In this document: piece by piece, positions 2 through 57,682 of the stretch | How the letters are laid out: every line of letters starts with the position of its first letter | Position numbering within the stretch: position 1 is the stretch's first letter | Assembly (NCBI GenBank): GCA_963749405.1 | Contig: CAVVMY010000016.1 | Coordinates: 16,414 to 80,413, forward strand | DNA: 64,000 nt | From: Candidatus Altiarchaeales archaeon | GTDB lineage: Archaea; Altiarchaeota; Altiarchaeia; IMC4; QMZM01 | Direction of reading: 5' to 3' | Notes under the pieces: generated by a model | What the model was told of the DNA's origin: nothing | Databases searched by the model: none | What the model saw: only the letters and a program-made list of their open reading frames with translations | Position numbers and translations under genes: made by a program

Positions 2-493
2 TTGGCAGATGATAAGGAGCGCTCTGAGCATGTGATGCTTGTGGATTTGGGCAGAAATGACGTGGGCAGGGTAGCTGATTATGGATCGGTCAAGGTCACG
101 AAGTTTATGTCTGTTGAGAAGTATTCTCATGTCCAGCACATGGTTTCTGAGGTGACTGGCCGCTTGCGGACAGGCATGGGTGTATTCGATGCCTTTAAAA
201 GCATTTTTCCGGCTGGAACTGTCTCGGGCGCTCCGAAGGTGCGGGCAATGGAGATAATAGAGGAACTTGAGAAGACCCACAGAGGGGTTTATGCCGGGGC
301 TATTGGCTATTTTTCTTTTAATCAAAACATGGATATGGCAATTTCTATCCGTACGATAATATTTGAGAAAGATAAGGCTTATATACAGGCAGGTGCTGGG
401 ATAGTTGCTGACTCGGATCCTGTAACAGAATTCCAGGAAAGCTTAAATAAGGCTAATGGACTGCTTAAAGCCCTTGCTGAGGCGGACTCATGA
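2..493 (+). CDS. trpE: anthranilate synthase component I, C-terminal part (5' end outside window)
   Basis: ORF translation shows a conserved TrpE C-terminal chorismate-binding domain ([25 protein letters not shown]). It is the first gene of the trpGDCFBA cluster and runs off the window start. Confidence 0.85.
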
Positions 494-1084
494 AAAACAC
501 AAAAATTCTCGTCATCGACAACATAGATTCTTTTGTCTATAACCTCGTGCAGTACGTAGGTGTCCTAGGCGGAAACCCGGTTGTTCTGCAAAACAATGCA
601 GATTTCAAAGAAGTAGAAAAGATAATTGCAAAGGAAAAGATTACACACATCATCATATCTCCCGGGCCAAAATCCCCGAAGGACGCAGGCATATCCAATA
701 AAGTGATCAAGGAATACGGTCCAAAGATACCTACCCTGGGCGTCTGCCTCGGCCATCAATGCATAGGCTACGTATTCGGCGGAGAGATACGCAGGGCCAA
801 AAGAGCTCAGGCACGGCAAGACCTCGATGATAAAACATAACGGAACAGGAATATTCAGGAATATAAGCAATCCTTTTGAGGCAACAAGGTATCATTCCCT
901 GGTAATAGAGGAGAAAAATCTTCCAGAATGCCTCGAAATAACGGCAAGGAGCCTAGACGACAAAGAGATAATGGGCGTCAGACACAAAGAGTTTCCAATC
1001 TATGGAGTGCAATTCCATCCTGAATCCATCCTCACAAATGAGGGCATGACTCTGTTAAAAAATTTTATTCTAATTGGGAGGTAA
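490..1084 (+). CDS. trpG: anthranilate synthase component II (glutamine amidotransferase), interrupted by +1 frameshift near 799-802
   Basis: Two ORFs (490-840, 827-1084) together give a full class-I GATase: [22 protein letters not shown] in frame 1, then (K)[18 protein letters not shown]...GVQFHPES in frame 2. Deleting one A from the AAAA run at 799-802 restores a single ORF. Confidence 0.8.
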
Positions 1085-1092
1085 ATAAAAAA

Positions 1093-2106
1093 TTGAAAGA
1101 AATAATTTCCAGCGTAGTCGGCGGAAAAAATATGTCGGCGCAGGAGGCGGAAAAAGCATTAAAGATTATAATGAGCGGACAATCAACTGACATAGAGATA
1201 ACCGCGCTCCTCACAGGACTCAAAATCAAAGGAGAAACCCCGGAAGAGATAGCCGCATTCGCCAAAGTCATGAGGGAATATGCCTTAAAGATAGAGCCAA
1301 AAGTCTCAGGGACATTGGTTGACATGTGCGGAACAGGAGGCGACAAATCCAATACATTCAACATATCGACCACTGCGATGTTCATCGTGGCTGGCGCCGG
1401 AATACCTGTAGCAAAGCACGGAAACCGGGCCCTGACTTCCAAATGCGGATCAGCAGACGTCCTGGAAGCACTCGGCGTAGACCTCTCCATAGGCCCTGAG
1501 AAGATATGTAAATCCATCGAGGACGTAGGCATCGGCTTCATGTTTGCGCCCATGCATCATTCCGCGACAAAATATGTGATGCCAGTACGTAAAGCCCTTG
1601 GCTACAGAACCATTTTCAACATACTCGGGCCTCTCACAAATCCTGCGAATGCCAGAGCCCAGCTTATGGGTGTCTATGATCCGAGCCTTACTGAGAAACT
1701 TGCCGAGGTCTTCAGGATACTTGGCCTGGATAGGGCGATGGTAGTCCACGGAGCACCCGGCTTGGACGAACTGTCAAATGTTGGTAAGACAAAGGTTTCG
1801 GAATTAAAGGAAGACAAGGTAAATACTTACTACATAAGCCCTGAAGATTACGGCCTGGAGAAAGCGGATATGAAAGACCTCATGGGAGGAACACCCCAGG
1901 AAAACGCAGAGATATTGAAGAACATAATAAATGGTTCAGACACCGGACCAAGGAGGGACATCGCCCTCCTAAACGCCGCAGCAGGCATTGTGGTCGGTGG
2001 GAAAGCTCAAAACATAAGCGAAGGCCTCAATCTGGCAGAAGAAGTCCTGGAAGATGGCAGAGCATACGAAAAGCTGCGCGAATATATAAAATACTGCGGG
2101 AAATGA
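1093..2106 (+). CDS. trpD: anthranilate phosphoribosyltransferase
   Basis: 337 aa ORF with the GTGGD motif (CGTGGDKSNTFNISTTAMFIVAGAGIPVAKHGNRA), typical of TrpD. Confidence 0.9.
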   Translation: MKEIISSVVGGKNMSAQEAEKALKIIMSGQSTDIEITALLTGLKIKGETPEEIAAFAKVMREYALKIEPKVSGTLVDMCGTGGDKSNTFNISTTAMFIVAGAGIPVAKHGNRALTSKCGSADVLEALGVDLSIGPEKICKSIEDVGIGFMFAPMHHSATKYVMPVRKALGYRTIFNILGPLTNPANARAQLMGVYDPSLTEKLAEVFRILGLDRAMVVHGAPGLDELSNVGKTKVSELKEDKVNTYYISPEDYGLEKADMKDLMGGTPQENAEILKNIINGSDTGPRRDIALLNAAAGIVVGGKAQNISEGLNLAEEVLEDGRAYEKLREYIKYCGK

Positions 2107-2760
2107 ACCTCCCCGCCCTAAAGGGCGGGGTATCGTGTGTTAAAAATGTGTCAAAGTAGTTTGGTTGTGCTGGGTATACCAGCCGTGGTGTGTGTCGCTA
2201 ATGTATGCGGCGATTACGTCAGCGGTGACGTTGCCCACGGTGCGGAAAAACTTGCCGGGGCTCCAGAAATGTCCTTTACGGAAGTGCTTGCGCAGCCAAG
2301 GGTGCTGGCGGAAAAGGCGGAAGGCGCTTCCGCCCTTCAGCAACTGGAGCGCACGCGAGACGCTCATAGTGGGCGGCAGGCCCACAAACAGGTGCACATG
2401 GTCGGCCTGCACCTGCAACTCGAAAATCTCCATCCGGTTCTCCTGCGCGATTTCCCGCAGAAAACGCTCGCAATGGCCCCGGACCACTGCGAACTTGAAC
2501 GGATCCATTGCATATTTGGCTTTCCATACAAGATGGAATGCGTTTTGCCCTACTCCGTGGCTATGGGATGTCAGTCCTTTCATTTTTCACCGTCGGCGCA
2601 AAAATTTCGCATAGCTCACGCTAACACCAATACCAAAGGTGGGTGCGCCAACTACGCTGCGCACCCACCATTAAGAACGAGCGTAGAAAACAGGGAGGTA
2701 ACTAGCAAGGCAAGCGAACGATATCTAGTTCGCAATTCCTCTGCGGCCTAAAGGCCGCAG
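2107..2760 (-). mobile_element. IS200/IS605-family insertion sequence (TnpA only) inserted between trpD and trpC
   Basis: TnpA ORF flanked by subterminal perfect hairpins with identical TAAA loops (CCCCGCCC-TAAA-GGGCGGGG at 2109-2128; CTGCGGCC-TAAA-GGCCGCAG at 2742-2760). A further 11 bp stem (GGTGGGTGCGC...GCGCACCCACC) sits around 2639-2670. Local GC is clearly higher than the flanking trp genes. Confidence 0.7.
2140..2583 (-). CDS. tnpA: IS200/IS605 family transposase TnpA (HUH Y1-type)
   Basis: 147 aa with an HVHLFVGLPP HUH motif and typical length. The C-terminal region reads FWSPGKFFRTVG where a catalytic Tyr is expected, so activity is uncertain. Confidence 0.8.
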   Translation of the reverse strand: MKGLTSHSHGVGQNAFHLVWKAKYAMDPFKFAVVRGHCERFLREIAQENRMEIFELQVQADHVHLFVGLPPTMSVSRALQLLKGGSAFRLFRQHPWLRKHFRKGHFWSPGKFFRTVGNVTADVIAAYISDTHHGWYTQHNQTTLTHF

Positions 2761-2784
2761 TATCCTTGCGAAAAGTGTAATGAA

Positions 2785-3516
2785 ATGAAATTCGATTTTG
2801 AAAAAATAGAAACAGAGAAAAAAGAGGAGATAAAGGACCTAAAAAAGACGAGGTCCCTCATAGGAGCAATAGAAAAGGCCAAAAGGGAAGGAATGACGCC
2901 TATAATCGCAGAAGTAAAAAAGAAAAGCCCGAGCAGAGGAAAAATAAATGGGATAGAGCCTGACGATGCGTCCCTCCACATGGAAAGAGGCGGAGCCTGC
3001 GCAATATCGGTATTAACCGACAAATATTTCAACGGTAAGATATGCTATCTGCGCCAGGTCAAAAAAACAGTAAAAATACCGGTTCTGCGCAAGGATTTTA
3101 TCGTTGACATATTCCAGCTCTATGAAAGCCGGGGAAACGGCGCAGACGCAGTCCTGCTAATAGCTGCATTGCTAAAAGATAAGACAAAGGAATACGTAGA
3201 CAAAGCCCATGAACTGGGCATGGAAGCGCTCGTAGAAATCCACAACGCAGAAGACCTAGGCTACGCCGTTGCATCAGGCGCCAAACTAATAGGAATAAAC
3301 AACAGAGACCTCAGAACCCTTAAACTGGAGTTAAACGCAACAGAAACCCTCGCACCCAAAATCCCAAAAGACAGAATAATCGTCGCAGAAAGCGGGATAG
3401 AAACCATAGAAGACATCAAAAGACTGAAAAAAGCAGGCGCAGACGCCTTCCTCATAGGAACAAGCATTATGTCGTCGCCTGACATAGAGAAAAAACTAAA
3501 GGAGCTGACAAAATGA
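2785..3516 (+). CDS. trpC: indole-3-glycerol phosphate synthase
   Basis: 243 aa with IIAEVKKKSPSRG and a TIM-barrel pattern, sitting in the trp operon. Confidence 0.9.
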   Translation: MKFDFEKIETEKKEEIKDLKKTRSLIGAIEKAKREGMTPIIAEVKKKSPSRGKINGIEPDDASLHMERGGACAISVLTDKYFNGKICYLRQVKKTVKIPVLRKDFIVDIFQLYESRGNGADAVLLIAALLKDKTKEYVDKAHELGMEALVEIHNAEDLGYAVASGAKLIGINNRDLRTLKLELNATETLAPKIPKDRIIVAESGIETIEDIKRLKKAGADAFLIGTSIMSSPDIEKKLKELTK

Positions 3517-4154
3517 TCAAAGTAAAGATATGCGGATTAACGAACGCCGATGATGCGTTATTCGCAGCCTCTGCCGGGGCTGATGCAGTCGGCATAGTGA
3601 ATGTGCCGGAATCCAAAAGATACGTAAAACTATATGCCGCAAGAGAGATATTCAAAGCAATGCCGCCGTTCGTTTCCAGGGTGCTGGTCGCATCCCCCAC
3701 AAAAATAAGCGATGTAAAAGAGATCGAGCGAATCGGCGCAGAGTACATACAGCTGCACGGAGATGAGGACATAATGTTCGTTAAGGAGATTCGCGAAAGC
3801 ACGCGCCTCAGGCTCATAAAACAGATAGCTGTAACTGGAAAAGAAAGCATCACGGAAGCTGAGGCCTATGCAGGCATCGTCGACGCAATACTCCTGGACA
3901 CTAAAACAAAAGACGGCTTAGGAGGAACCGGGCAGTTGCATGACTGGAAAATCAGCAGGGAAATCGCGCAGCGAGTAAAGAAGCCAGTCATCCTCGCAGG
4001 CGGGCTGAATTGCGGAAACGTGCTGGACGCGATCGGACGGGTGGCGCCTTACGCTGTTGATGTTGCAAGCGGCGTAGAGATCTCGCCCGGGATAAAGGAT
4101 CGAAAAAAGATCGATGATTTCATAAAGAAGGTGAAGGCTTATGGGATTACCTGA
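3513..4154 (+). CDS. trpF: phosphoribosylanthranilate isomerase
   Basis: 213 aa starting [15 protein letters not shown]. Its start overlaps the trpC stop, which suggests translational coupling. Confidence 0.85.
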
Positions 4155-5332
4155 TAACAGAGGAAAGTATGGCGTATACGGCGGACGCTTTTCTCCTGAG
4201 GTATTGATGCCTGCGCTCTTTGAACTGGAAACCGCATTCAAAAGATACGTAAAGGATGAAGAATTCCAAAAAGAGCTGGCATACTATCTGCGCGAATTTG
4301 CCGGAAGGCCTACGCCGCTTTATTATGCAAAGAACCTCTCGGAAAAACTTGGAGGCGCGAAGATATATCTCAAGAGGGAGGATCTTGTCCACGGCGGCGC
4401 GCATAAGCTTAACAGCACGCTTGGGCAGGCGCTCCTTGCAAAGAAGATGGGGAAGAAGAGGGTCATAGCCGAGACAGGCGCGGGCCAGCACGGAGTTGCT
4501 ACTGCTATTGCTGCGGCCACGTTGGGTCTTAAATGCGAGGTCTACATGGGCACAGAGGATACCGTCAGACAGAAGCTGAACGTCTTTCGCATGAACCTCA
4601 TGGATGCCCGAGTAATACCTGTTGATTCGGGTTCGAAAACGCTCAAAGACGCGACCAACGAAGCATTCAGGGACTGGATAGCAAACATCGACGACACATA
4701 CTACCTCATAGGAAGCGTTATGGGGCCTCACCCTTATCCCATGATAGTCAAGGAGTTCCAGAAGGTCATAGGCATAGAAACAAAGAAACAGAATCCTTGA
4801 AAAGGAAGGAAAACTCCCTGAGGTCATCATGGCCTGTGTAGGCGGAGGAAGCAACGCGATGGGGATATTCAATGCATTCAAGGAAGATACAGGAGTAGAG
4901 CTATGCGGAGTGGAAGCCGGAGGCAAGGGAATAGAAACAGGAGAACATGGAGCGGCACTATGCGCGGGAACGAACGGAGTACTGCACGGCATGTACTCAA
5001 AGATACTCCAAGATAGATACGGACAGATAAAGGTCTCATACTCGATATCCGCAGGACTCGACTACCCGGGCGTCGGACCGGAGCTCTCTTACCTGGCAGG
5101 CGAAGGACGGGTGAAGCCGGTTTCAATAACTGACGCGGAAGCACTCGACGCATTCAAAACGCTAAGCAAGACAGAAGGAATAATGCCGGCGCTGGAATCC
5201 GCGCACGCAGTGGCGCAAGCCATAAAGACGGCACCCAAGATGAAGAAAAACGAAACCATAATCGTGAACCTCTCAGGCAGGGGAGACAAAGACGTGTTCA
5301 CGGTTGCAGAAGCCCTGGGGGTAAAACTATGA
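4141..5332 (+). CDS. trpB: tryptophan synthase beta chain, interrupted by +1 frameshift near 4792-4794
   Basis: ORFs 4141-4800 and 4829-5332 together give a full TrpB ([35 protein letters not shown] ... [11 protein letters not shown]). The sequence aaacagaATCCTTGAAAAGGAAGG reads [23 protein letters not shown] once one A is removed. Confidence 0.85.
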
Positions 5333-6123
5333 AGCTAAAAGAGAAATTCGCAGAACTGAAAAAGAAAAAACAAGGCGCATTAATAGGATTCGTAACGGCC
5401 GGAGACCCGACGGCAGAGGACACACTTGAGATAGCGCAGGCCATGATAAAAGGAGGAATAGACATACTCGAACTAGGACTCCCATTCTCAGACCCGGTAG
5501 CAGACGGACCAGTAATACAGAAAGCAGGAGACCGTGCCCTACGCGCCGGAATGAACCCGGACAAATTCTTCGAAATAGCGGCAAAAATCAATGATATGCC
5601 AAAGGCGGTTCTCACATATTACAATATAGTCTTACAAAGAGGCCTGGACAAATTCTGCGCAGACTGCGCAAGCACCGGAATAGAAGGCCTCGTCATACCA
5701 GACCTGCCAATAGAAGAATCCAAGCCCCTGCAAAACACATGCAGAAAGCACAGGATATCACTGATCCTCCTCGCAGCCCCCACGACACCGGACGACAGGC
5801 TCGAAAAAATCCTAAAAGAAGCCGACGGATTCCTATACGTCGTCTCAGTAGCAGGAGTCACGGGCGCAAGAAAAGACCTCTCAGAGCAGGTAAAACCCCT
5901 GATCAAAAGAATCAAAAAGCAGTCGGGAAACCTGCCCCTGGCAGTGGGATTCGGCATATCCAAACCGGAACACGTAAAGGAAGTGATAGCCTCAGGAGCA
6001 GAAGGCGCAATCGTGGGAAGCGCTTTTGAGAAGATAATAGAGGAAAACCTCGGAAATAAAAAGGAGATGCTGCGAAGGCTTGAAGGCTTCGCAAGAGAAC
6101 TTAAATCTGCCACACCCTACTAA
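5329..6123 (+). CDS. trpA: tryptophan synthase alpha chain
   Basis: 264 aa with [12 protein letters not shown] and the conserved TrpA fold pattern. Its start overlaps the trpB stop. Confidence 0.9.
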
Positions 6124-6208
6124 ACGCACCATTCCTGACCAACAAAGACGTCTGAGAGTTCCTTAATTATTTGCACGTAATACGCAAATAATATAACAAC
6201 ACCCAAAG

Positions 6209-7462
6209 ATGCCAACCATTTCACAAAAAATTCTCGCGGCTAAATCAGGGAAAAAAGCCGTCGAGCCGGGAGAAATCGTCGAAGCAGAAGTGGATTACGT
6301 GATGGTAAACGACGTCACAGGTCTTCCGGCATTCGAGGTATTCGAGCAGTTCAAGGCCGAGCCCCTGCGGGAGAAGATAGTGCTTATCCCGGACCACTAT
6401 GTGCCAAACAAGGATGTAGCGTCTGCAAACCAGGCCAAGGCTATGAGAGATTTTGCAAAAAAATACAGGATAAAGAACTACTACGAAGTAGGCTGCGGAG
6501 GAGTATGCCACCAGCTCATGGTAGAAGAAGGATACGCCGCACCCGGCAGACTGATAGTAGGCGCAGATTCGCACACATGCACATACGGCGCACTGGGGGC
6601 CTTTGCGACAGGAATCGGATCAACAGAGGCTGCGGCGGTTTTCGCCACTGGAAAGCTGTGGTTCAAGGTCCCGGAAAGCCAGAAATACACTGTCAAAGGA
6701 AAACTCGGAAGATACGTCATGGGCAAAGACATCATACTGCACATAATAGGCGACGTCGGAGTAGACGGAGCACTCTACAAGTCCATGGAATTCTGCGGAG
6801 ACACGATAGAGAACCTGGAAATATCAGACCGCCTCACGATATCAAACATGGCAATAGAAGCAGGAGGAAAAACAGGGATCATCCCGGCAGACAAGAAAAC
6901 AGACGAATACCTTAAAGGGCGGGTCCGCGGAGCATACAAAGCAGTATACTCGGACAAAGACGCAGAATACGCCAACGAATACTTCTACGCTGCGGAAGAC
7001 ATACCACCTACTGTAGCCCAGCCAAGCCTGCCATCCAATACTAAGCCAGCAAGCGAATTATCGAACGTGGAAATAGACCAAGCCTACCTCGGCTCATGCA
7101 CAAACGGCCGAATAGAAGACCTGCGCATAGCAGCCCAACTGATGAAAGGCAAAAAAGTAAAAGAAGGAACAAGGATGATCGTCGTCCCGGCAACCAAGAG
7201 AGTATTCGAGCAGGCAATGCAGGAAGGACTGATAAAGATATTCATGGACGCCAAAGCCTACGTATCGGGACCGACGTGCGGAGCATGCCTCGGCGGATAC
7301 ATGGGGATACTCGCAAAGGATGAAACAGCAGTCTCATCGACGAACAGAAACTTCATAGGAAGAATGGGACATAAAGACAGCAAAGTGTACCTAGCATCCC
7401 CGGCAGTCGTCGCAGCCTCGGCATTGACCGGGAGGATAACGGATCCGAACGACTTAAAATAA
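6209..7462 (+). CDS. leuC: aconitase-family dehydratase large subunit (3-isopropylmalate dehydratase / homoaconitase LeuC/HacA-type)
   Basis: 417 aa with ADSHTCTYGALGAFATGIGSTE and LGSCTNGRIEDL, which are aconitase-family Fe-S cluster ligand regions. No adjacent small subunit is present. Confidence 0.75.
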   Translation: MPTISQKILAAKSGKKAVEPGEIVEAEVDYVMVNDVTGLPAFEVFEQFKAEPLREKIVLIPDHYVPNKDVASANQAKAMRDFAKKYRIKNYYEVGCGGVCHQLMVEEGYAAPGRLIVGADSHTCTYGALGAFATGIGSTEAAAVFATGKLWFKVPESQKYTVKGKLGRYVMGKDIILHIIGDVGVDGALYKSMEFCGDTIENLEISDRLTISNMAIEAGGKTGIIPADKKTDEYLKGRVRGAYKAVYSDKDAEYANEYFYAAEDIPPTVAQPSLPSNTKPASELSNVEIDQAYLGSCTNGRIEDLRIAAQLMKGKKVKEGTRMIVVPATKRVFEQAMQEGLIKIFMDAKAYVSGPTCGACLGGYMGILAKDETAVSSTNRNFIGRMGHKDSKVYLASPAVVAASALTGRITDPNDLK

Positions 7463-8896
7463 TGGAAAAAGCACTGATAGCATCGATAGCCCTGACGCTT
7501 TTATTATGCTGCTGCACTAACGTAACCAAAAGCACAAACACGTCCGCGACTATACAAATAGATACAAACCAGAACGCATCCTACAGCTCAAGAGACGACC
7601 CAATCGCCAGATGCGAGAAAAGCCTAGAAAAAGACCTATGCTTTTGGAACGCAGGAAAAAAGGCGAATGATACCTCTTTTTGCGACAGGATAACAACGCA
7701 GACAGACAAAGACAGACTGCTTTCTCGGACTAGCAGAAGGAGTAAACCAGCCGGAAATCTGCGAAAAAATATCCGACCCGCAAGTAAAGGATACCTGTTA
7801 TTCCAACTATGCCATCGATCTAAATGATTACTCAGTCTGCAAGAATATCTCAGACCTCACTAACAAGGAGACCTGTTATTACTACATCAGTTTACAACAG
7901 AAGGACATCAGTATCTGCGACCAGATAGAGAGGAAAGACACAAGAGACGCATGTTACATGAGCCAAGTGGAATACAGGAAAGATCCATCCATCTGCGCAG
8001 GCATCGCAAACACAAATACGACAGACCTATGCTACTACAATCTTGCAAAGGCGGTTACAAATGAGACATACTGTTCCAGGATCAATGACAGCTCCCTGAG
8101 GAACCTATGCAGATACGACGTCGCAGTATCCAAAAAGGACATGAAGGTCTGCATAGGCATAGAGTACACGGACCTGCGAGTCCACTGTGATGCAGTAACA
8201 GGACTAGAGCCAAGCGCCTGCGACGGCATAGAGAATCAGGATGAAAAAGATTACTGCTACAGCGACGTTGCGAACCTGACATACGACCCATACGTATGCG
8301 AAAAGATAAACGATAATGCGACAAGGGAATACTGCTTCAAAGACCTTGCAAAAACCCTGAAAGACGAGTCCATCTGCATGGCACTAAACGACTACAAGAG
8401 TAGCTGCTTCTACGACGTGGCCACAAACGAAAAAAATGCGGACATATGCAAAGAAATAACTGCGGAAGACTACAAAACAGAATGCTACAGAAAAGCCAGC
8501 ACAGAGAAAACAGACCCCAGCATCTGCGATGAACTGGAAGAACAGACAAACAAGGATGCCTGCTACCTGGACATGGCCAACAAAAAAAGAGACGCATCGA
8601 TCTGCGAGAAGATCCAAGACACAGACCAAAAAGCATACTGCATCGCACAAGCAAAAAACGACTCCACACTCTGCAAAAACATAAACGACCTAGATCTCCA
8701 GGACCAATGCGCAGGGATCATAGACAAAGACCCGGCCAAATGCGACAGAATAGGCTCGGCAACATACAAAGCGATCAACCTAAAAGACGACTGCTACACG
8801 CAGATAATAGAAGAGATAAACGATACGGCGATCTGCGGGACGAAAGAGTTTTCGGAATATAAGAACAGGTGCATTGCGATAATGGAGGGGTCGTAA
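7462..8896 (+). CDS. secreted/lipoprotein-like Cys-rich tandem-repeat protein (about 16 repeats of a roughly 30 aa C-x-DxCY motif), with +1 frameshift near 7703-7712
   Basis: N-terminal signal/lipobox-like sequence (LTLLLCCCTN). Repeated ...ICxxI..D..KDxCY...A... units continue from ORF 7462-7827 into ORF 7958-8896 through a frame change at gacaaagacAgactgc. Removing one A gives TDKDDCFLGLAEGVNQPEICEKI. Confidence 0.55.
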
Positions 8897-9031
8897 GTAG
8901 CAAACAAAAAAGTGAGCATAACATACCCCATGACATGTTTCATGCGAAGAAAGTTCGCATAAAATCTAGTTTTTCCAAATGAAATGAGCTTATATATCCG
9001 TTGCCATATATAATTTGTAACATGAAATAAC

Positions 9032-15178: not shown

Positions 15179-15241
15179 GCTTGCGCTGGCATCCTTGCGG
15201 ACTTTGGGGGTGAAGACATCCCTTCTTTGAGAAGGGAGGCT

Positions 15242-15329
15242 CGCCGAGGATGAGATTCGAACTCATGACCCCCTCGCGGAGAACGGGCTCTCAAGGCCCG
15301 CGCGTTAAACCGTGCTCTGCCACCTCGGC
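15242..15329 (-). tRNA. tRNA-Ser(TGA), class II with long variable arm
   Basis: 88 nt. Perfect acceptor stem GCCGAGG/CCTCGGC plus discriminator G. Anticodon arm is CGGGC-CTTGAGA-GCCCG (anticodon TGA). T-arm is ATGAG-TTCGAAT-CTCAT. A long variable arm is present. Confidence 0.8.
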
Positions 15330-15470
15330 ACCTGTAATGAACGTGAGTGCCGAGATGCCGACATTCGTCGTCACCTCGGCGTTGTGAATGAACATGAACA
15401 ACGCTGAGACGCCCGACCCGTAGGTCGGCTGCGCCTCGGCGTTGTGAATGAGGAGTGCGTTATATTCGCG
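15320..15470. repeat. three tandem imperfect copies (period about 50-57 bp) of the tRNA-Ser 5' end plus its upstream sequence
   Basis: C(A/G)CCTCGGC(A/G)(C/T)(C/T)GT(A/G)AATGA(A/G) recurs at about 15320, 15371 and 15428. Only the first copy is attached to the complete tRNA. A CGACCCGTAGGTCGG hairpin lies between copies 2 and 3. Confidence 0.5.
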
Positions 15471-19656: not shown

Positions 19657-19694
19657 GTCCTAAAATATATCCCAGCGTTCCTATATATTTCTTT

Positions 19695-20363
19695 ATGATG
19701 CCTGATAGAAGATTCGCCTACGGAGACGGAACAAGTTTTTTGCAAGCCGTCTTTGCCTGGATGTTTTTCGGCCTTTTGTTGTCCGCGGCTGCGGCTTTTT
19801 TCGTATTGGCCAGCCCCGATCTGCAGACCTTTGTAATCAATACTTACATCATTCTCGCCGTCATAGAGCTTGCGCTTGTCGTTGTGCTTTCCTGGCTTAT
19901 CAATAAGATTCCAACGCCCGTTGCCATGCTTCTGTTCATAGTTTACTCACTTGTCTCAGGGGTCACGTTGCTTGCCATCGTATTAGCTTATACTGAAGCC
20001 TCTGTAGCGGTGGTTTTCCTTATCACCGCAGGTATGTTCGGAGCCATGAGCATATATGGCTTTGTCACAAAGAGGGATCTTTCAGCCCTTGGGGCTATGC
20101 TTTTCATGGCTTTGATAGGCTTGGTTCTCGCTATGCTTGTGAATATCTTTTTGAATAGCTCTTTGCTGGATCTTATCACGTCTGTTGCCGGGGTTATCAT
20201 TTTCACAGGTCTTACGGCTTATGACGTTCAGAGGATTAAGAGGATAGGTGCTGAAGCTGGAGGGGATAGCAAGTATGCAATAGTCGGGGCTTTGGCATTG
20301 TATCTTGATTTCATCAACCTGTTTATCAGTCTGCTTACGCTTTTAGGGAAGAGAAGGGATTAG
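19695..20363 (+). CDS. Bax inhibitor-1/YccA family membrane protein
   Basis: Seven predicted TM helices with a conserved BI-1 family pattern. Start is taken at the internal MMPDRR; the ORF could extend back to 19653. Confidence 0.7.
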   Translation: MMPDRRFAYGDGTSFLQAVFAWMFFGLLLSAAAAFFVLASPDLQTFVINTYIILAVIELALVVVLSWLINKIPTPVAMLLFIVYSLVSGVTLLAIVLAYTEASVAVVFLITAGMFGAMSIYGFVTKRDLSALGAMLFMALIGLVLAMLVNIFLNSSLLDLITSVAGVIIFTGLTAYDVQRIKRIGAEAGGDSKYAIVGALALYLDFINLFISLLTLLGKRRD

Positions 20364-20704: not shown

Positions 20705-20750
20705 AGGCCAAGACCTGCCGTGAGCCTGATGGCTCACCAGGATTCTTTTT
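20705..20750 (+). terminator. GC-rich hairpin followed by an oligo-T tract
   Basis: CCTGCCGTGAGCC-TGAT-GGCTCACCAGG followed by ATTCTTTTTTATT, resembling an archaeal intrinsic terminator for a plus-strand transcript. Confidence 0.35.
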
Positions 20751-21755
20751 TATTCTAACAGCTTAAAATCCACGCACATCCTTGAAAGCTGCGGAGAATA
20801 GGTCCCGCATTCAACTACGTCAAGGACTTCTATTACATGCCCCAGTTTAGAGCAGATACCTTTTACTTCCTGCGCCGCTTCCTCCGTCGTGCTGGTGAAG
20901 GTATAGTAATGTATGATGCCTCCCTTCTTCACTGCTGGAATCGCTTTATCCAAAAAGTTTCCTGCGTCTTTGGGTAAAGGCATGATTATGCGGTCGAATA
21001 TGCCGTGTTTTCCTGCCTCAATCCCTGCATCTCCGAGTATGGCCTTCACGTCCACCTTATTTCGGCGGATGTTTTCCTTCATATACTCGACAGCTGCAGG
21101 GTTAAGCTCTACCGCATAGACCTCTTTGGGTCGGGCATACTTTGCCATCAATATTGCGTAGGGGCCAATCCCTGCGAACATGACCAGTACGCGTTCTCCT
21201 GCTTTTACCTGCTTTGCTATGCGCATTCTCTCAGTGCCCAGCCTGGGAGAGAAATATGCGCGTGTTACGTCCAACTCGTAGATGCAGCCGTATTCCCTGT
21301 GCAGGGTTTCGGTGCGGTTCTCGCCTGCGATAACTTCCACATCCCTTGTCCGGTACTCTGTTCCTACGCTGGTTTTTTTGTTTGCGACGACCAATATGTT
21401 CTTAAAAGTGGAAAGAATCGCTTTGCCGATGGTTTTTTTCTTGTCCTTCAGTTCGTCAGGTATTTCTATGACTGCTATATCTCCGATTATGTCGAAGGAC
21501 TTTGGCAGAATCAGCAGTCTCTTCCTTTGTCAGTTTATCCTCTAAGGCCTCTTTCAGGGAAGCAGGCTTGCGCTTGGATTCTTTATTTTCCAAGAAAACA
21601 ATCTCGGTTTTTGGGAGGATTATTTCATGTTTTATGGGCATTAACAGATAATCTCCCTGCCTAACGATTTCCCGGTCTCTATCGAATGCTCCCATCTCAA
21701 TGAGTTTTCTCCTTATTTCTTCTCCTTTGCTTCGAAAGATTTTGAGGTACATCAA
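20750..21755 (-). CDS. trm5: tRNA (guanine37-N1)-methyltransferase Trm5 (Met-10+ like), interrupted by +1 frameshift near 21455-21470
   Basis: N-terminal ORF (21456-21755) and class-I SAM MTase ORF (20750-21394) are in different frames. The alternative frame reads SFDIIGDIAVIEIPDELKDKKKTIGKAILSTFKNILVVANKKT. One A too many in a sense-strand AAA run (gccaaAgtcc). Confidence 0.75.
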
Positions 21756-21801
21756 ATCAATATAGGATAGAGGTCAAATAAAAAAAAAGATATAGGAACA
21801 T

Positions 21802-22503: not shown

Positions 22504-22575
22504 TTTTTAGAACCCTTGTTAATTATTATATTCTATATACTTAAAAAGGGTAAAAAAATTGAATATTGTATAAAA

Positions 22576-27202: not shown

Positions 27203-28004
27203 ATGTTCGACTCTGTCTTTTTATTCAAGGTCTTCCTCTCTTTCCTGACAGGGGGAGTTTTCACTACGATCACATTGTATGCCGCGGAAAAGCATGGGCC
27301 AAAAGTCGGAGGGATAATCGCAGGCCTTCCTTCCACGACAGCTGTCGGCTTGTTCTTCATAGGATACGCACAGTCTGCGCAGGCTGCATCCCAAGCCGCA
27401 ACTCTCATGCCGGCAGCAGTCGGCGGAAAGCCTGATCTTCGTTATCGCGTATGTGATGCTCTGCAGGAAGATAGGATATAAACAGGCCCTGCTGACAGCA
27501 TCCCTGATTTGGCTTATGATCTCGCTGCCCCTCGCATATCTCGGATTCGAGGATATGTATACTGCGACGTTGTTTTTCCTGGCAGTCTGGGCAGTGACTC
27601 TTTTCTATATGGGACACCAGACGACTGATGTGAAGATGCCGGAAAAGATAAGCTACACAAAAGCCCAGATGCTGTGGCGCGCGATCTTTGCAGGCGCCCT
27701 TATCGCCTCAGCAGTGGTGATCAGCAGTTTATTCGGGCCGCTCTGGGGCGGCGCGCTTGCGGCATTCCCTGCCATGTTCCTCACAACATTCATAATACTG
27801 TGCAGAGCCTATGGATGCGAATACAGCACGGCCTTTGCAAAGAGCACACCCATCGGCCTCTTTGGAGTGATCCCCTATCTTTGGAGCGTGCATTATCTTT
27901 ATCCTGTTTACGGGATCGTGGCAGGGACGTTTTTGTCCTATGTGCTGTCGGGCATTTCAACTCTTGCAATTTATACTGCGCTTAAAACTCAACGCCGCCT
28001 GTGA
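27203..28004 (+). CDS. polytopic membrane protein, interrupted by +1 frameshift at 27425-27428
   Basis: ORFs 27203-27481 and 27453-28004 are both hydrophobic. Removing one A from ggaaAgcctg joins ...MPAAVGG to SLIFVIAYVMLCRK... Confidence 0.5.
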
Positions 28005-30609: not shown

Positions 30610-32131
30610 ATGGAGATAGGGCAGGTCATAGGGGCTACGACGCTTAGGGGTTTTAGGTTCGTCATAAAAGAGGGCATGGAAAAGCATGTTAAGCGCGGCG
30701 AATTCGTGTCCGTGAAGGAAGCAGTCACGGGAAACGAAGTTCTGGGCATAATAAAAGAGATCACTATAAGTAACGAGCTTCTGCCTGACGAATTCGGACG
30801 GGATCTGCGCATAGGCGACATCGTCCTCAATGAGGGGGAGTACCCGGTTCCAACTGTTAAGATCCTCGGCTACGAAGACGGGGAGGGCCTTGAGCTTCCA
30901 CGCCACGGCATAAAGCCCGGCTCCTCGGTTGAGCTTGTGGAGGATGACGTGCTTAAGAAAATCCTTTGGCAGGATGACAATAAATCGGCTTGCATAGGCT
31001 CTGTTTCTACAAGGGAGAACGTTCCGGTCTATGTATCAATCAACGACATCATCTCCAGGCATTGCGCCGTGCTGGCCATGACGGGTTCAGGGAAAAGCTA
31101 CACAGTCGGCGTCCTCATAGAAGAACTTTTGAAAAAGAAGGGCGCACTTATCGTATTTGACCCCCACGGCGAATATAAGAACATATTAGTTGACGGTGCG
31201 GACACCAAGGTATACGGAGTCAAGGGAGGAAGCAAGATAAGGATAGAGACATCATCTCTCAGAACAGGCGACTACGCAAACCTCATACCAGACCTCACAG
31301 AGCCGCAGAGAGACTTACTGGATGAGACGGTAAGCCTCGCAGGCAAGTTCTACGAAAAATACGATTTCGAAAACGTCAAAAACATCCTCTCATGCGTATA
31401 TGACGTAAAAGACGGAAGAGAGATCATAACGGATATGATCCCTGAGAACACGTTGAAGGAACTGGCCAAGAAGGTAAGCCTCTCCACGGTCGGGGCGCTT
31501 ATCAGAAGACTGGATCGCCTGGCCAGGATGGGAGTATTTGAGATGGAGGGAACGCCTCTTGAGGAGATCGTGTCCGTAAACCAGACTCACTGTGATAGAC
31601 CTGAGCGACTCGGATGAAAGGCTGTCTGAGACTATCATAGCGGTGCTCTGCCGTAAGATCTTCGATGCCCGGAAGCAGTATGTGAAAGACGGGGAGGGAA
31701 GCTTTAGGACTCCGACATTCATCATCGTGGAAGAGGCGCACAACTTCGCCCCGCGCGCAACAGAGGAAAGACAGATAATTTCAAGAGGCATTTTGAAAAG
31801 GATAGCGCGCGAGGGAAGAAAATTCGGCGTAGGCCTGTGCATAGTAAGCCAGAGGCCGAGCAAACTCGACTCCGACGTATTATCGCAGTGCAATACCCAG
31901 ATAATAATGAAGATAGTAAACCCGGCAGACCAGGAATACATAAGACAATCAGTGGAAAGCGTTACAGAGGACGTGGTAAAAGACCTGCCAGCGCTGGCAA
32001 GAGGGGAAGCCATAATATCCGGATCAGCTATACGGCTCTCAGTCCCTGTCAAGGTAAGGCACAGGACGACAGCAGTCGGAGGAGAAGACATCGACATCGT
32101 AGGAGAATGGATGAAGAACTCAAAAAACTAA
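30610..32131 (+). CDS. herA: HerA-like FtsK/HerA-family ATPase (DUF87), interrupted by frameshift near 31580-31595
   Basis: N-terminal HAS-barrel-like region and Walker A (AVLAMTGSGKSYTVGVLIEELL) in ORF 30505-31617. Walker B (TFIIVEEAHNF) and the C-terminal sensor (CIVSQRPSKLDSDVLSQCNTQIIMKI) are in ORF 31592-32131, in another frame. Confidence 0.7.
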
Positions 32132-33989: not shown

Positions 33990-34269
33990 ATGGATAAAAG
34001 AATCATTGTGGGTATTCTATTGTTATCTGTGCTTCTTTTCCCTCTTTGCACGGAGAATAAAGGTACAACTGCGGAAACAAAGAGCCCGGTAACTACTGCA
34101 GCCGGACAGGAACAGCCCGCGACAACAGACTGTGATACCTCTTACAGAAATCCAACAGGAATCATGCACCTCAGCAGACCAAGGAGGAACATGCGAGTCA
34201 AAATTGAAAGAACTGGACATAGTATCATTGGAAGACTGCTGCAAATACCTCGGCAAATGCTGTCAATGA
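33990..34269 (+). CDS. small secreted Cys-rich protein, interrupted by +1 frameshift near 34155
   Basis: Signal peptide MDKRIIVGILLLSVLLFPLC and a Thr-rich segment in frame 1. The Cys-rich tail EIQQESCTSADQGGTCESKLKELDIVSLEDCCKYLGKCCQ is in the +1 frame. There is an extra A in tacagAaatcc. Confidence 0.35.
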
Positions 34270-34275
34270 AGGAAA

Positions 34276-38768: not shown

Positions 38769-38853
38769 GGTTATTAAGTCGTATTATTAATAAGTTTAAC
38801 AAAGATATATAGATTTATACCGACCATTCTTCTGAAAAAAATAACCCCACAAA

Positions 38854-40548: not shown

Positions 40549-40590
40549 GCCCATTTCTGATTTTTCCCGCCCCGTTTCTTATAATCATAC

Positions 40591-41892
40591 ATGGCAGAGC
40601 AAGTCCTAGTCCTCAAGTCCGGATCATGCAGCTGGGCAAAATGCTGCTTCTGCGGATACGGCAGAACACCCGGAAAAGAGCCGACAACAGCCAAACTAAA
40701 GAAGGACTTTGACGCATTTTTTAATGACGTGCGCGCCGGCGACACAGTCAAGGTATTCGGCTCAGGGAGCTTCCTCGACACAAAACAGGTGCCCTTGGAC
40801 GCAAGGGCATATTTCATAGAAAAATGCCGCAGCACAGGCATAGAAAAACTATTCATAGAATCCAGGCCAGAATACATAAACGAAGCCGCACTAAAAGATT
40901 TTGACGGAATCAACCTCTCGGTAGCGATCGGCCTCGAAGTCGCAGACGACGTATTACTGGATAAGATAAACAAAGGATTCCACCTAAAAGACTATGATGA
41001 GGCCACGGCAAAGATACACAAATGCGGAGCAAAAGTGCGCACATACCTGCTCGCAAACCCGCCATACGCCAAAGACATAAAAAAGATCCTTGACAAATCC
41101 GTAGAATACGCGCTCATCCGCTCCGATACAATCGTCCTCATAAACCTGCTGCCCCATGGCAATACGCCGGTATTCAAGATGTGGCTGACAGGTACGTGGA
41201 ATTTTCTATCCCGCGAAGAATTTTACAAATTAACTGATAGCTGGAAAGACAACCCAAAAATAGAACTCGACGCCGAAACCTTCAGATTCATACCGAAATT
41301 CCCGGAACAACTTAAAGAACGGCTAAACGGTGTAGGCGAAGCCTTCCTCACACACCCGCACTTCGAAGTATGGCAGGACTACCTGCAAAGATGGTACACG
41401 CCGCCAGAAGAGAAGGACATACTATTATTCCTACCCTGCTCATACCAAAAACCATACTCACACTCCAAAACGCACCAAGGGATAATAGAAACCGCAAAGA
41501 AGACGGGCAAATACCAAAGAATACACCAGGTGATGATCAGCAACACCGGCCTCGTCCCAAGGAAATACGAAGACTGCTACCCCTTCAACGCATACGACTG
41601 GGACGAATCACTGGAGACAGAGGAGATAAAAAAGAGATACATAGAGGTAACAAAGACACGGATAAAGAGATATTTAACCTGCCACAGAAATAAGTACAGG
41701 ACCATCATCTGCTTCCTGAAATACAGCTCAGAAAGCTACCAGGCACTCGAAGCCGCATGCAGGGAACTTGGTATTCCAATGATAAACCTGCTCTCAAAAG
41801 AGACATATGAAAAAATCAGAAAAGAAGGAAAGCCGCTTCAGACAGACGCGGCTCTTAGCGATCTATACAACAATCTAACCAAGGAAACATGA
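40591..41892 (+). CDS. radical-SAM-like (CxxxxCxxC) protein fused to an uncharacterised C-terminal domain; possibly tRNA/archaeosine-modification related
   Basis: N-terminal CSWAKCCFCGY cluster and TIM-barrel-like radical SAM core features. The C-terminal 200 aa has conserved Cys/His. The functional call is tentative. Confidence 0.4.
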   Translation: MAEQVLVLKSGSCSWAKCCFCGYGRTPGKEPTTAKLKKDFDAFFNDVRAGDTVKVFGSGSFLDTKQVPLDARAYFIEKCRSTGIEKLFIESRPEYINEAALKDFDGINLSVAIGLEVADDVLLDKINKGFHLKDYDEATAKIHKCGAKVRTYLLANPPYAKDIKKILDKSVEYALIRSDTIVLINLLPHGNTPVFKMWLTGTWNFLSREEFYKLTDSWKDNPKIELDAETFRFIPKFPEQLKERLNGVGEAFLTHPHFEVWQDYLQRWYTPPEEKDILLFLPCSYQKPYSHSKTHQGIIETAKKTGKYQRIHQVMISNTGLVPRKYEDCYPFNAYDWDESLETEEIKKRYIEVTKTRIKRYLTCHRNKYRTIICFLKYSSESYQALEAACRELGIPMINLLSKETYEKIRKEGKPLQTDAALSDLYNNLTKET

Positions 41893-55011: not shown

Positions 55012-55085
55012 TGCCCACGCCGGGATTCGAACCCGGGTCAAGGGATCCGCAATCCCCCAGGATGTCCTAGCTACCCCACGTGGGC
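55012..55085 (-). tRNA. tRNA (74 nt); anticodon ambiguous between Arg(GCG) and Ala(TGC) by hand-folding
   Basis: Acceptor is GCCCACG/CGTGGGC plus A. T-arm is CCGGG-TTCGAAT-CCCGG. The anticodon region is CTGGGGGATTGCGGATCCCT. The better-paired fold gives loop TTGCGGA (GCG). C3:G70 argues against Ala. Confidence 0.75.
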
Positions 55086-55231
55086 TACTTGATAGTATTC
55101 CGATTAAATGCTTTTAAGTGGTTGGAACCTGCCAAAATAGTTTTAAGAGGATTGAGATAATCAGAGAAGAAAAAAGGGATAAGAAACGGGCGTGGATACC
55201 GCCAAGAACGAATAAACATATAACTATCCGC

Positions 55232-55882
55232 TTATTCCGCCAAGCCCCTTATATACCCGTTTTCTGTGTGTGTTGCTGTGATTGCACTCGTGGTCGCCTT
55301 GTAGGTCATTACAACCATCATATTGTATACAGCACCTGTTGGCACCGAAGTACAGCCCGTACCTGAGACGCTGAACACTTCGCCCGACAGAACGTTGGAT
55401 GATGAGGGAGTTACTGTACCACAAGAACCGCCGGAGATTGTCTCATTCAGGGATACGCTAATTACTCTTATAGGCGATCCTGCATCGTTTGTGAAAGTCG
55501 CGTTAAAGTTGGTGCCCTTGTATGCCACGCTCGGCATCATAGGATTCACTCTAACGAAGCCGGTCTCTACCGGCCCCCCTTGCCCGGCGTTGAAGACGCC
55601 AAGCTGCCAGAGAATTAAACCGACGACCATAACCACCAGTATGGCCCATCCGTAAGACATCAGGTACTCCATTGCCCCCTGTCCCCTGTTGTCCATATAA
55701 AACGAGATAGGCATGTTTACATGACCCAAGATAAAAGCAAAAATCAGAAGTATGATTAAGCCTGCTAAAAAAACAGCGGCTATAGTTGCGAAGTCTATTG
55801 GAGTTAAGTTGTTACTCTCGTTTATCACCTGATTGACTGAGTCTATTAATGGATTGGCAAATGCAACCAAAGTATTTCTCAT
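55232..55882 (-). CDS. class III signal peptide (archaeal type IV pilin-like) protein, diverged paralog
   Basis: Contains RGQGAMEYLMSYGWAILVVMVVGLILWQLGVFNAGQ (class III signal/prepilin cleavage-like motif plus hydrophobic mature N-terminus). The annotated ORF has an upstream extension, so the true start is likely near MDNRGQG. Confidence 0.6.
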   Translation of the reverse strand: MRNTLVAFANPLIDSVNQVINESNNLTPIDFATIAAVFLAGLIILLIFAFILGHVNMPISFYMDNRGQGAMEYLMSYGWAILVVMVVGLILWQLGVFNAGQGGPVETGFVRVNPMMPSVAYKGTNFNATFTNDAGSPIRVISVSLNETISGGSCGTVTPSSSNVLSGEVFSVSGTGCTSVPTGAVYNMMVVMTYKATTSAITATHTENGYIRGLAE

Positions 55883-56017
55883 CTTTACTATATTAAAAAA
55901 TTTGTATTCAGGTACTATAAATATATAACAGACAGTAGGTAATAGTTGGAGAAAAAAAGGATAAGAAGAAAAGGTGCATACCGCACCCCCATAACAGATA
56001 AAATATATAGTTATCCG

Positions 56018-56491
56018 TTATTCACCTTCGCCCCTTATGTAGCCGGTTTCTGTGTGCATTGTGGTGTATCCAGCCAGGCTCGAGTTGTAGGTTATTATAA
56101 TCATCATATTGTATGCAGCACCGGTTATCACCGAGGGACAGGTCGTACCTGCAAGGTTGAACACCCCACCCGCCATAACAGGGGCTGAGGGAACTACTAA
56201 GGTAGTACAATTAACGCCGTTAATCGTCTCATTCATGATCACAGTCATTAGTCTTATAGGCGCACCTACGTTATTCGTGAAAGTCGCGTTAAAGGCCGTA
56301 GTCTTATACACAACGCTCGGCATCAAAGGATTCAACCTGACGAAACCAGTCCCTACCGGGGCTCCCTGTCCTGAATTGAAGACCCCAAGCTGCCATAGGA
56401 CTACACCAACTATCATAACGACGAGTATTGCCCATCCATAGGTCATCAGATACTCCATAGCACCCTGACCCTTGTTTCCTAGATATTCCAT
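56018..56491 (-). CDS. class III signal peptide pilin-like protein (copy A)
   Basis: MEYLGNKGQGAMEYLMTYGWAILVVMIVGVVLWQLGVFNSGQ..., 157 aa. Confidence 0.7.
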   Translation of the reverse strand: MEYLGNKGQGAMEYLMTYGWAILVVMIVGVVLWQLGVFNSGQGAPVGTGFVRLNPLMPSVVYKTTAFNATFTNNVGAPIRLMTVIMNETINGVNCTTLVVPSAPVMAGGVFNLAGTTCPSVITGAAYNMMIIITYNSSLAGYTTMHTETGYIRGEGE

Positions 56492-56746
56492 TTTAAATCT
56501 GTCCTCTGTTTTTTGTTTTTAATTTCTTAACATATGTATAAAGTATGACATTTTCTAATATAAATACTTTCCGGTGAGGAAAATGCTAAGATACTCCATA
56601 GTCTTTACTAAGAAGACTGCTGATGTCCGTGGCCAAGCCATTGGTCTTAGACATGCGCCGATTTGTAATCAGATAAAGAAAAAAGATAAGAAAGGAGGGT
56701 GCTGGGATACCGCACCCCCATAACAGATAAAATATATAGTTATCCG

Positions 56747-57220
56747 TTATTCACCTTCGCCCCTTATGTAGCCGGTTTCTGTGTGCATTGTGGTGTATCC
56801 AGCCAGGCTCGAGTTGTAGGTTATTATAATCATCATATTGTATGCAGCACCGGTTATCACCGAGGGACAGGTCGTACCTGCAAGGTTGAACACCCCACCC
56901 GCCATAACAGGGGCTGAGGGAACTACTAAGGTAGTACAATTAACGCCGTTAATCGTCTCATTCATGATCACAGTCATTAGTCTTATAGGCGCACCTACGT
57001 TATTCGTGAAAGTCGCGTTAAAGGCCGTAGTCTTATACACAACGCTCGGCATCAAAGGATTCAACCTGACGAAACCAGTCTCTACCGGGGCTCCCTGTCC
57101 TGAATTGAAGACCCCAAGCTGCCATAGGACTACACCAACTATCATAACGACGAGTATTGCCCATCCATAGGTCATCAGATACTCCATAGCACCCTGACCC
57201 TTGTTTCCTAAGTATTTCAT
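56747..57220 (-). CDS. class III signal peptide pilin-like protein (copy B)
   Basis: 98-99% identical to copy A (MKYLGNKGQGAMEYL...). Confidence 0.7.
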   Translation of the reverse strand: MKYLGNKGQGAMEYLMTYGWAILVVMIVGVVLWQLGVFNSGQGAPVETGFVRLNPLMPSVVYKTTAFNATFTNNVGAPIRLMTVIMNETINGVNCTTLVVPSAPVMAGGVFNLAGTTCPSVITGAAYNMMIIITYNSSLAGYTTMHTETGYIRGEGE

Positions 57221-57420
57221 CTTTTCTGTTCACCTCATGTTTTGAGTTTTTGTTTTTTTTATGTATATTATGTATATTAAGTAGTGTATGGTTTTTTTAG
57301 GTTTAAATACTTTTCGTTTTAGGGCTGGGTAACTGTTTTTAGGGGTAGGTAACTGTTTGTTAATAGGTTGTTAGTTACTTGATAGATAACCATGTTCTCA
57401 TTGATTAACTAAAGTATTTC

Positions 57421-57682
57421 ATGGACTGGGACGACTACTCATTTGTCGTACGTTCAAAACAGAGAAAGGATACCTTGTTAATCCTGGAAAATCCTAAAAC
57501 ACCCACCCCAGTTAGGGGATAAACTTGATGTAAGCATATCTCATGTGAGTAGAACCCTTAAAGAGTTCACGGAGAAAGGCTTGGCTGAGTGTATGAATCC
57601 CCAACAAAAAGTTGGCCGTATATATGCTTTAACCAGGAAAGGACAGATAACACTAAAACAAATCAAAAAAAACTTAATGTAA
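57421..57682 (+). CDS. small winged-helix transcription regulator divergent from pilin cluster, interrupted by +1 frameshift in CCCC run at 57507-57510
   Basis: Frame 1 reads MDWDDYSFVVRSKQRKDTLLILENPKTPT. The next frame reads QLGDKLDVSISHVSRTLKEFTEKGLAECMNPQQKVGRIYALTRKGQITLKQIKKNLM (HTH). Not in the ORF track because both pieces are under 60 aa. Confidence 0.5.

Follow-up and report, generated by a model that had tools for sequence, protein, structure and literature searches.

Eight genes with one extra base each

A stretch of 64,000 nucleotides from an uncultured Altiarchaeota archaeon, hereafter the window, contains several conserved genes whose reading frames are interrupted by a single extra nucleotide. 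This raises the question of whether the extra bases belong to the organism's DNA, are accommodated during its gene expression, or are errors of the deposited assembly. Lesions were located by Pfam checks of about 60 ORFs and by tblastn of relatives' ORFs onto the window; these replaced a codon-usage sliding-window frame scan, which was too noisy for locating frameshifts. Eight genes, each with one +1 base, were found:

490..1084, + strand: trpG (GATase), split into 490-840 and 827-1084; AAA becomes AAAA at 799-802
4141..5332, + strand: trpB, split into 4141-4800 and 4829-5332; GATC becomes GAATC at 4792-4793
7462..8896, + strand: Cys-rich repeat secreted protein; extra A at 7716, CAGCTG becomes CAGACTG
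20750..21752, - strand: trm5; extra T on the + strand at 21518, a sense-strand A, splits GAGCTG
27203..28004, + strand: DUF3147 membrane protein; AA becomes AAA at 27427-27429
30610..32131, + strand: herA; extra A at 31585, CAGCTC becomes CAGACTC
33990..34269, + strand: small secreted Cys-rich protein; extra A at 34127, CAAC[A]GACTG; 92 aa when repaired
57421..57682, + strand: wHTH regulator; extra C, CCCC at 57506-57509; 86 aa when repaired

A reading of this DNA from its letters alone (the sequence-only reading) had counted at least nine broken genes. The breaks are truly present in the sequence, but eight are documented, and at the candidate ninth site, 63996, it is more likely the other assembly, described below, that is wrong. 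The events are, as that reading stated, single-base +1 insertions at all eight sites, and the predominance of sense-strand A is borne out at seven of them, the wHTH regulator having an extra C. The description of these sites as sense-strand A-runs fits trpG, trpB and DUF3147, the only three where an existing A or A-run is extended, but not the Cys-rich protein, trm5, herA or the small secreted protein, where a lone new A stands between non-A bases (between G and C three times, between C and G once) and, in three of the four, splits an AGCT. The lengthened runs go from A to AA, AA to AAA, AAA to AAAA and CCC to CCCC. As for positions, trpG (799-802) and trpB (about 4793) had been placed correctly, and herA (about 31585) is now resolved to 31585 by the sequences L081 and L082; DUF3147 (27425-27428) and the wHTH regulator (57507-57510) were nearly right and have been refined, but the Cys-rich insertion lies at 7716 rather than 7708, that of trm5 at 21518 rather than 21460, and that of the secreted protein, on the evidence of a same-strain contig, at 34127 rather than 34155.

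The NCBI/ENA annotation enters the gene fragments as separate proteins. ORF-breaking indels occur in the window at about 1 per 8 kb, and about one gene in nine is broken. Two overlapping ORF pairs, L31e/eIF6 and HisA-F/TatD, were rejected as frameshifts, each being two separate genes. An apparent truncation of LeuC in the IMC4 genome L023 is an N-gap in the scaffold.

Comparison with relatives

The sequence-only reading had proposed comparison with orthologous loci as a check. The orthologues are uninterrupted in all relatives, at 64-93% amino acid identity, and span both halves of the broken genes. Five of the genes have Pfam matches divided over adjacent, +1-shifted ORFs, namely trpG (1-99 and 108-187 of 190), trpB (both halves PALP), trm5, DUF3147 and herA. 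The trpG of the relatives L087 and L088 (90.6% nucleotide identity) reads GCC-AAA-GAG, without the extra A, and that of L002 is intact at 199 aa. In trpB the extra A is the sole gap over 1966 nucleotides aligned to L001 and L002, and with the L001 TrpB the two halves share 93% and 90% identity. The Cys-rich protein is intact in L001 (478 aa) and L002 (476 aa), with the alignment ACAG-CTGC, and tblastn places the frame switch of trm5 at 21517-21519. For DUF3147, BLAST's placement of the insertion at a T was rejected from close relatives (P0121-P0123), which read AAVGGSLIFV. The herA of L081 and L082 reads CCAG-CTCAC, without the extra A, and the two halves of the window gene are 89% and 92% identical to relatives. 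The locus of the small secreted protein in a relative's ENA contig (ERZ1426824) encodes an intact 84-aa ORF. In the alignment of the wHTH family KTPT is invariant and is followed by a nearly invariant Q, a pattern that is restored only by dropping one C.

These data bear on the possibility that the frameshifts are genuine and recent, in a strain that is losing trpG, trpB, trm5, herA and other genes by pseudogenisation, which the sequence-only reading had offered as an option beside assembly error and recoding. The extra bases do stand in the deposited sequence, with the fragments annotated separately, and two assemblies have the wHTH frameshift (see below). However, the halves of the broken genes retain 88-93% protein identity to relatives, with no second lesion, and match neighbouring genes in their degree of conservation. 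Moreover, where decaying genes would show mixed lesion types, all eight lesions are insertions of a single base, and none of the genes has a deletion, a nonsense codon or a second hit.

Same-strain contigs from run ERR11596056

Independently assembled Logan contigs of run ERR11596056 (L083, L084, L085, L086 and L089) belong to the same strain and agree with the window over about 25 kb, without any isolated substitution. Over 23.1 kb the two assemblies disagree at 10 sites, while a further 2057 nucleotides are identical. All the discrepancies are indels, some with a substitution directly adjacent, and there are no other differences. If both assemblies derive from the same reads, the Logan assembly is only partly independent of the window.

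Five of the eight sites are covered by these contigs; trpG and the Cys-rich protein are uncovered, and contig L084 starts exactly at 4794, so that its break (4793/4794) falls at the trpB insertion. Of the five sites with coverage, three lack the extra base (trm5 21518, DUF3147 27427 and secreted protein 34127). In trm5, contig L086 is identical to the window over 3263 nucleotides but for the one base at 21518; the repaired Trm5 of 333 aa had been predicted beforehand and was found exactly so in this contig. In DUF3147, L083 reads GG-AAGCC and encodes an intact 266-aa protein (P0209). The same contig lacks the extra A of the small secreted protein; an insertion there at CAG[A]CTG was rejected, since this contig puts it at C[A]GAC, at 34127. 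At herA 31585 the Logan sequence differs from the window in another way: L083 reads CCAGTCCAC, which restores the frame and yields a 506-aa HerA. Since L083 is in frame but reads CCAGTCCAC, both assemblies deviate at the herA motif. Only at the wHTH regulator is L085 identical to the window, making this the only extra base common to both assemblies; a single genuine mutation, or an error that nearly all reads share, would account for it.

The disagreement is reciprocal. Indels of the Logan assembly, among whose errors are the deletion of a C and a CT-to-TC swap, break four genes; in the window all four are whole and agree with relatives:

chorismate mutase (CM_2): 67 aa in Logan, 85 aa in the window
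prephenate dehydratase (PDT): split into 140 and 129 aa in Logan, 266 aa in the window
dehydroquinase (DHQase): split into 88 and 92 aa in Logan, 221 aa in the window
192-aa ORF: broken in Logan, intact in the window

At the ORF pair 24890-25504 and 25477-25788, where the assemblies differ, the intact version is the window's. Because the extra bases are mostly missing from another assembly of this strain, and because that assembly has breaks of its own, the frameshifts point to artefact rather than biology. The restored frames at trm5, DUF3147, the secreted protein and herA weigh further against pseudogenisation, as does the kind of difference between the assemblies: indels and the changes next to them, without a single isolated substitution in about 25 kb, do not look like natural divergence. 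We regard loss of these genes as very unlikely.

Motifs at the affected sites

Three of the window's insertions split [CG]AGCT[CG] exactly in the middle, and a fourth does the same to GATC. In addition, the extra A of trpG lies 3 nucleotides upstream of a GAGCTC, and that of DUF3147 7 nucleotides upstream of a GATC. Such a distribution is far from a random one (P about 1e-6, for a motif chosen post hoc). The discrepancies between the assemblies are concentrated in the same way: [CG]AGCT[CG], which occurs 17 times in the 23.1 kb, contains 5 of the 10 (P about 4e-10), and two further discrepancies lie within 1 nucleotide of GATC. Errors centred on AGCT have S flanks in six of six cases, with none at the 137 other AGCT sites (Fisher P = 1.6e-4). 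Logan contig ends follow the motifs as well, six of nine lying within 4 nucleotides of [CG]AGCT[CG] or GATC, and one Logan contig, picked beforehand through a gene with neither motif, is 100% identical to the window and has both ends at GATC. The wHTH site and the secreted-protein site, the latter with no GATC or AGCT close by, are near neither motif and count against a motif-linked error. GATC is modestly under-represented (observed/expected 0.68); AGCT is not (0.89).

Long homopolymers show no such association. None of the 119 A or T runs of at least 6 nucleotides in coding sequence (91 A and 28 T) carries a frameshift. The sequence-only reading's suggestion of systematic homopolymer insertion errors can accordingly be divided: error is supported by the same-strain assembly, but a homopolymer cause is not, since half the insertions are outside runs and the 119 long runs are unhit. 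The A bias that it found notable is present, but largely reflects composition and small numbers, with a single minus-strand gene behind it. The sense strand is 31.9% A versus 20.3% T and has three times as many A-runs as T-runs. Counting against this, all seven A/T insertions are a sense-strand A, of which composition explains only part.

Origin of the extra bases

Our analysis suggests that the extra bases very probably arose as errors in the deposited assembly, rather than belonging to the organism's DNA or reflecting its expression. The reads may be single-molecule reads of native DNA that had not been amplified, with nanopore as the likeliest platform, from an archaeon that would methylate [CG]AGCT[CG] and GATC. 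Methylation at these motifs would lead the base-caller to mis-size the sequence there, and a polisher and a k-mer assembler would each settle the ambiguous sites differently. Base-modification errors at motifs, GATC included, are documented for nanopore assemblies, and are mostly purine/purine or pyrimidine/pyrimidine substitutions (PMC11610603; PMC11610573). The present errors resemble these in falling at short recurrent motifs, in an outcome that depends on assembly and polishing, and in a remainder that is essentially error-free, but differ in being 1-nucleotide indels; [CG]AGCT[CG], moreover, could be matched to no characterised methyltransferase. The classical homopolymer errors of 454, Ion Torrent and early nanopore data likewise give ORF-breaking single-base indels, and four of the eight insertions lengthen a base or run, but here long runs are clean and the other four create a new single A. 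A 454-type flow-order cause, in which an A flow would be spuriously registered between G and C, was dropped because deletions and swaps occur at these motifs in the other assembly and because long homopolymers are clean.

The motifs also lend themselves to a biological explanation, in which indel heterogeneity at restriction-modification motifs is real within the population and the assemblers picked different alleles. Blunt cutters cleave at the centres of AGCT and GATC palindromes, and one cause could be self-cleavage at AG^CT and GA^TC with inexact rejoining of the ends; four window insertions are exactly central in such palindromes, and both assemblies disagree at these motifs. However, this would require a high frequency of disrupted essential biosynthetic genes in the population, the C deletion and CT-to-TC swap in Logan give no one consistent scar, and contig breaks at many GATC sites indicate noisy reads rather than two alleles. 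We consider this even less probable than pseudogenisation. The chance is similarly slim that 1-nucleotide scars at AG^CT and GA^TC centres are real and frequent in the natural population together with a genuine, possibly recoded, wHTH lesion.

Least probable of all is programmed recoding, whether by +1 ribosomal frameshifting, transcriptional slippage or removal of an A from the RNA. All events are +1, seven of the eight involve a sense-strand A, and each gene is otherwise intact and conserved. As in the programmed frameshifting of bacterial prfB or at the AAA-stop sites of Euplotes, a +1 shift is needed for a conserved full-length protein. Unlike those systems, there is here no common slippery or stall motif, fixed phase, adjacent stop or conservation among orthologues: the extra base falls at the third codon position in the Cys-rich and secreted proteins and at the first in trm5 and herA, the second also occurring; a 0-frame stop follows after 2 to 75 codons; and the orthologues are unshifted. 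In insect endosymbionts, transcriptional slippage reportedly rescues frameshifts in poly(A) tracts (Tamas et al., 2008), also through an extra sense-strand A in otherwise conserved genes. Such rescue needs tracts of about 9 or more A, whereas the tracts here are 0-4 nucleotides (1-4 after insertion), too short for slippage. Quadruplet decoding by a single tRNA is rejected because the four-base units vary by site (AGAC, CAGA, GAGA). The absence of three of the bases from the other same-strain assembly, and the restored herA frame, count against recoding too, and nothing here supports either recoding or unusual frameshift tolerance.

Consequences for genome interpretation

Literature searches brought up no account of frameshifts in Altiarchaeota and no paper naming the run accessions, and a nanopore study of Altiarchaeota (PMC11484514) concerns runs other than ERR11596056. 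The result is chiefly a warning: taken at face value, the broken genes would distort metabolic reconstruction, for example by making the organism look auxotrophic for tryptophan, and would skew the pseudogene counts and the completeness estimated for this genome; frameshifts at [CG]AGCT[CG] and GATC provide a practical screen. If the extra bases are assembly errors, their pattern is also an indirect hint that this uncultured archaeal lineage methylates GATC and [CG]AGCT[CG].

Gene content and disrupted reading frames

LeuC (6209-7462) has its best matches in Candidatus Altiarchaeales/Altiarchaeia MAGs (90% amino acid identity), and positions 1-8900 of the window are syntenic with two contigs from relatives (L001 and L002) at a nucleotide identity of about 82%. 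The window contains leuC, a trp operon (trpE' G D C F B A), a ribosomal-protein/RNA-polymerase operon, and genes such as ABCE1, trm5, L31e, eIF6, DUF763, DUF3147, herA, pheA, Hef and CDC48, among others. Its only Rfam matches are two tRNAs:

15241-15330, minus strand, tRNA-Ser(TGA)
55012-55085, minus strand, tRNA-Arg(GCG)

The sequence-only reading had counted at least nine conserved genes broken by +1 insertions, of which we can document eight, all of them +1, from Pfam splits, relatives' ORFs, a family alignment of the wHTH regulator and same-strain contigs. In trpG, trpB, trm5, DUF3147 and herA, the Pfam match is divided over neighbouring +1-shifted ORFs; ORFs of relatives match two window frames in these five genes and in the Cys-rich protein, and in no other gene in the regions covered. 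In the wHTH family, KTPT is invariant and the Q after it nearly so, a pattern that is restored solely by deleting one C of CCCC. About 60 further ORFs gave full-length family matches or no hint of a break. In the 110,185-bp NCBI/ENA contig of this genome, the fragments of the broken genes are annotated as individual proteins.

Frameshift sites in the window (expected to observed sequence)
799-802, trpG, AAA to AAAA
4792-4793, trpB, GATC to GAATC
7716, Cys-rich protein, CAGCTG to CAGACTG
21518, trm5, GAGCTG to GAGACTG on the sense strand
27427-27429, DUF3147, AA to AAA
31585, herA, CAGCTC to CAGACTC
34127, secreted protein, CAACGAC to CAACAGAC
57506-57509, wHTH regulator, CCC to CCCC

The inserted base is a sense-strand A at seven of the eight sites, as had been claimed, but the A-run context does not hold, a pre-existing A or A-run being found at only three of the seven. 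Systematic homopolymer error is likewise rejected, since coding sequence contains 91 A-runs and 28 T-runs of at least 6 nt and none of these 119 carries a frameshift. The sense-strand bias, which had been called notable, is seen against a sense strand that is itself rich in A (31.9%, versus 20.3% T, with an AT skew that follows gene orientation) and has three times as many A-runs as T-runs. The affected genes lie mostly on the plus strand, and trm5 alone distinguishes 'sense strand' from 'plus strand'; the bias left over beyond composition is weak.

Comparison with a second assembly of the same strain

One cluster partner of the DUF3147 fragment is a full-length 266-aa protein from the Logan assembly of run ERR11596056, and five contigs were taken from this run (L083, L084, L085, L086 and L089). 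Jointly they span window positions 4794-6512, 19511-22773, 23005-34301, 38568-40624 and 57181-64000. Over these regions the two assemblies differ at ten indel sites, some with a substitution directly beside them, and are otherwise identical, with no isolated substitutions.

The Logan assembly is in frame at four window frameshift sites: trm5 (333 aa, exactly the repaired Trm5 predicted before the contig was found), DUF3147 (266 aa), the secreted protein, where the extra A is missing, and herA (506 aa), where the motif reads CAGTCC in Logan, CAGCTC in relatives and CAGACTC in the window. Conversely, Logan has its own breaks where the window and relatives carry intact genes, namely in chorismate mutase (a G missing from CCGATCC), prephenate dehydratase (GAG-TG), dehydroquinase (GAG-TC) and a 192-aa ORF broken beside GATC. 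GAGCTC at 60127-60130 is also scrambled in Logan, a deletion and an insertion compensating so that the gene stays in frame. At 63996 (CAAATC) Logan has one A fewer, dividing a minus-strand ORF (62699-64000, compared with L085 1565-3534) into genes of 244 aa and 375 aa, and the 108-nt gap between them remains open in the window's frame. This difference is probably a Logan error, because the window version is one continuous ORF. The wHTH site is the sole window frameshift site that is the same in both assemblies.

Origin of the frameshifts

The sequence-only reading had offered assembly error, recoding and pseudogenisation as explanations. As a description of the sequence it is largely correct; the frameshift feature itself is almost certainly an artefact. 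The wHTH frameshift, alone among the sites, may be real, in which case it would represent an ordinary pseudogene. As a general explanation, pseudogenisation fails: there is a single lesion type throughout, none of the genes is hit twice, the halves of the broken genes are still 88-93% identical to relatives, and assemblies that differ solely by indels and adjacent changes are unlike natural divergence. Recoding at the level of translation or RNA fails as well, given that the codon position of the extra base varies, a 0-frame stop follows after anything from 2 to 75 codons, the sites have no slippery motif in common, A tracts do not exceed 4 nt, orthologues are unshifted, and the same-strain assembly lacks three of the extra bases and has herA restored to frame.

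The assembly errors cluster at two palindromic motifs. An AG^CT context was first seen at the window's own sites, prior to retrieval of any Logan contig. Five of the ten discrepancies fall within [CG]AGCT[CG], which occurs 17 times in the compared 23.1 kb (P ~4e-10), and two further discrepancies lie at most 1 nt from GATC. Of the errors centred on AGCT, all six are flanked by C or G, and the other 137 AGCT sites are free of errors (P = 1.6e-4). The ends of Logan contigs fall at these motifs as well: at 4794 (the trpB GATC site), 6512 (CAGCTC), and 19511 and 22773 (both GATC). In a forward test with a gene lacking both motifs, the retrieved Logan contig was 100% identical to the window, with both ends at GATC. 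The ribosomal-protein operon is intact because its genes contain almost no [CG]AGCT[CG] or GATC. CTAG, GTAC and GATC are under-represented in the window (observed/expected 0.47, 0.56 and 0.68, respectively).

These contexts suggest native-DNA single-molecule reads, most likely nanopore, in which sequence around modified bases would be mis-sized; a weaker candidate for the source of the errors is PacBio kinetics at 6mA or 4mC. Documented cases of errors at modification motifs, GATC among them, come from R10.4.1 nanopore assemblies and are mostly substitutions (PMC11610603; PMC11610573).

Other features of the window

An insert of about 680 bp (2108-2782) separates trpD from trpC, which abut in L002 and in a closer relative (a contig in ERZ1426824) that lack it. 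It encodes an IS200/IS605-family TnpA (2140-2583, minus strand; NCBIfam NF033573, E = 9e-33) and contains two imperfect hairpins (2635-2672 and 2729-2772); the insert looks like a minimal IS200-like element within the operon. The trpD start (1084-1095) is TTG in the window (AAAAAATTGAAAG) and ATG, with one base fewer (AAAAGA-TGAAAG), in relatives at 90% nucleotide identity, which could reflect another indel error or a genuine difference.

Three tandem paralogous units, spaced by about 730-786 bp, occupy 55190-57220, and L085 ends inside this repeat at 57181. Each unit has one minus-strand ORF (157-216 aa), for which Pfam and NCBIfam give no match, and the copies at 55978-56277 and 56707-57006 are identical over 300 nt. 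At 57317-57356, some 65 nt upstream of where the wHTH gene starts, a 20-nt direct repeat occurs twice in tandem (TTTTAGGGCTGGGTAACTGT and a copy 90% identical to it); the pair could form an operator.

Between DUF3147 and a cytidylyltransferase gene, minus-strand ORFs of 401 aa and 276 aa (27982-30054) have no family match; this position holds a single 150-aa ORF in L082, another related contig, and three ORFs in the closer relative, and by this comparison the block is lineage-variable. Two large secreted proteins with many Cys-containing repeats, one with a long Thr-rich linker, are encoded at 34276-36381 and 7462-8896 and have homologues in relatives.
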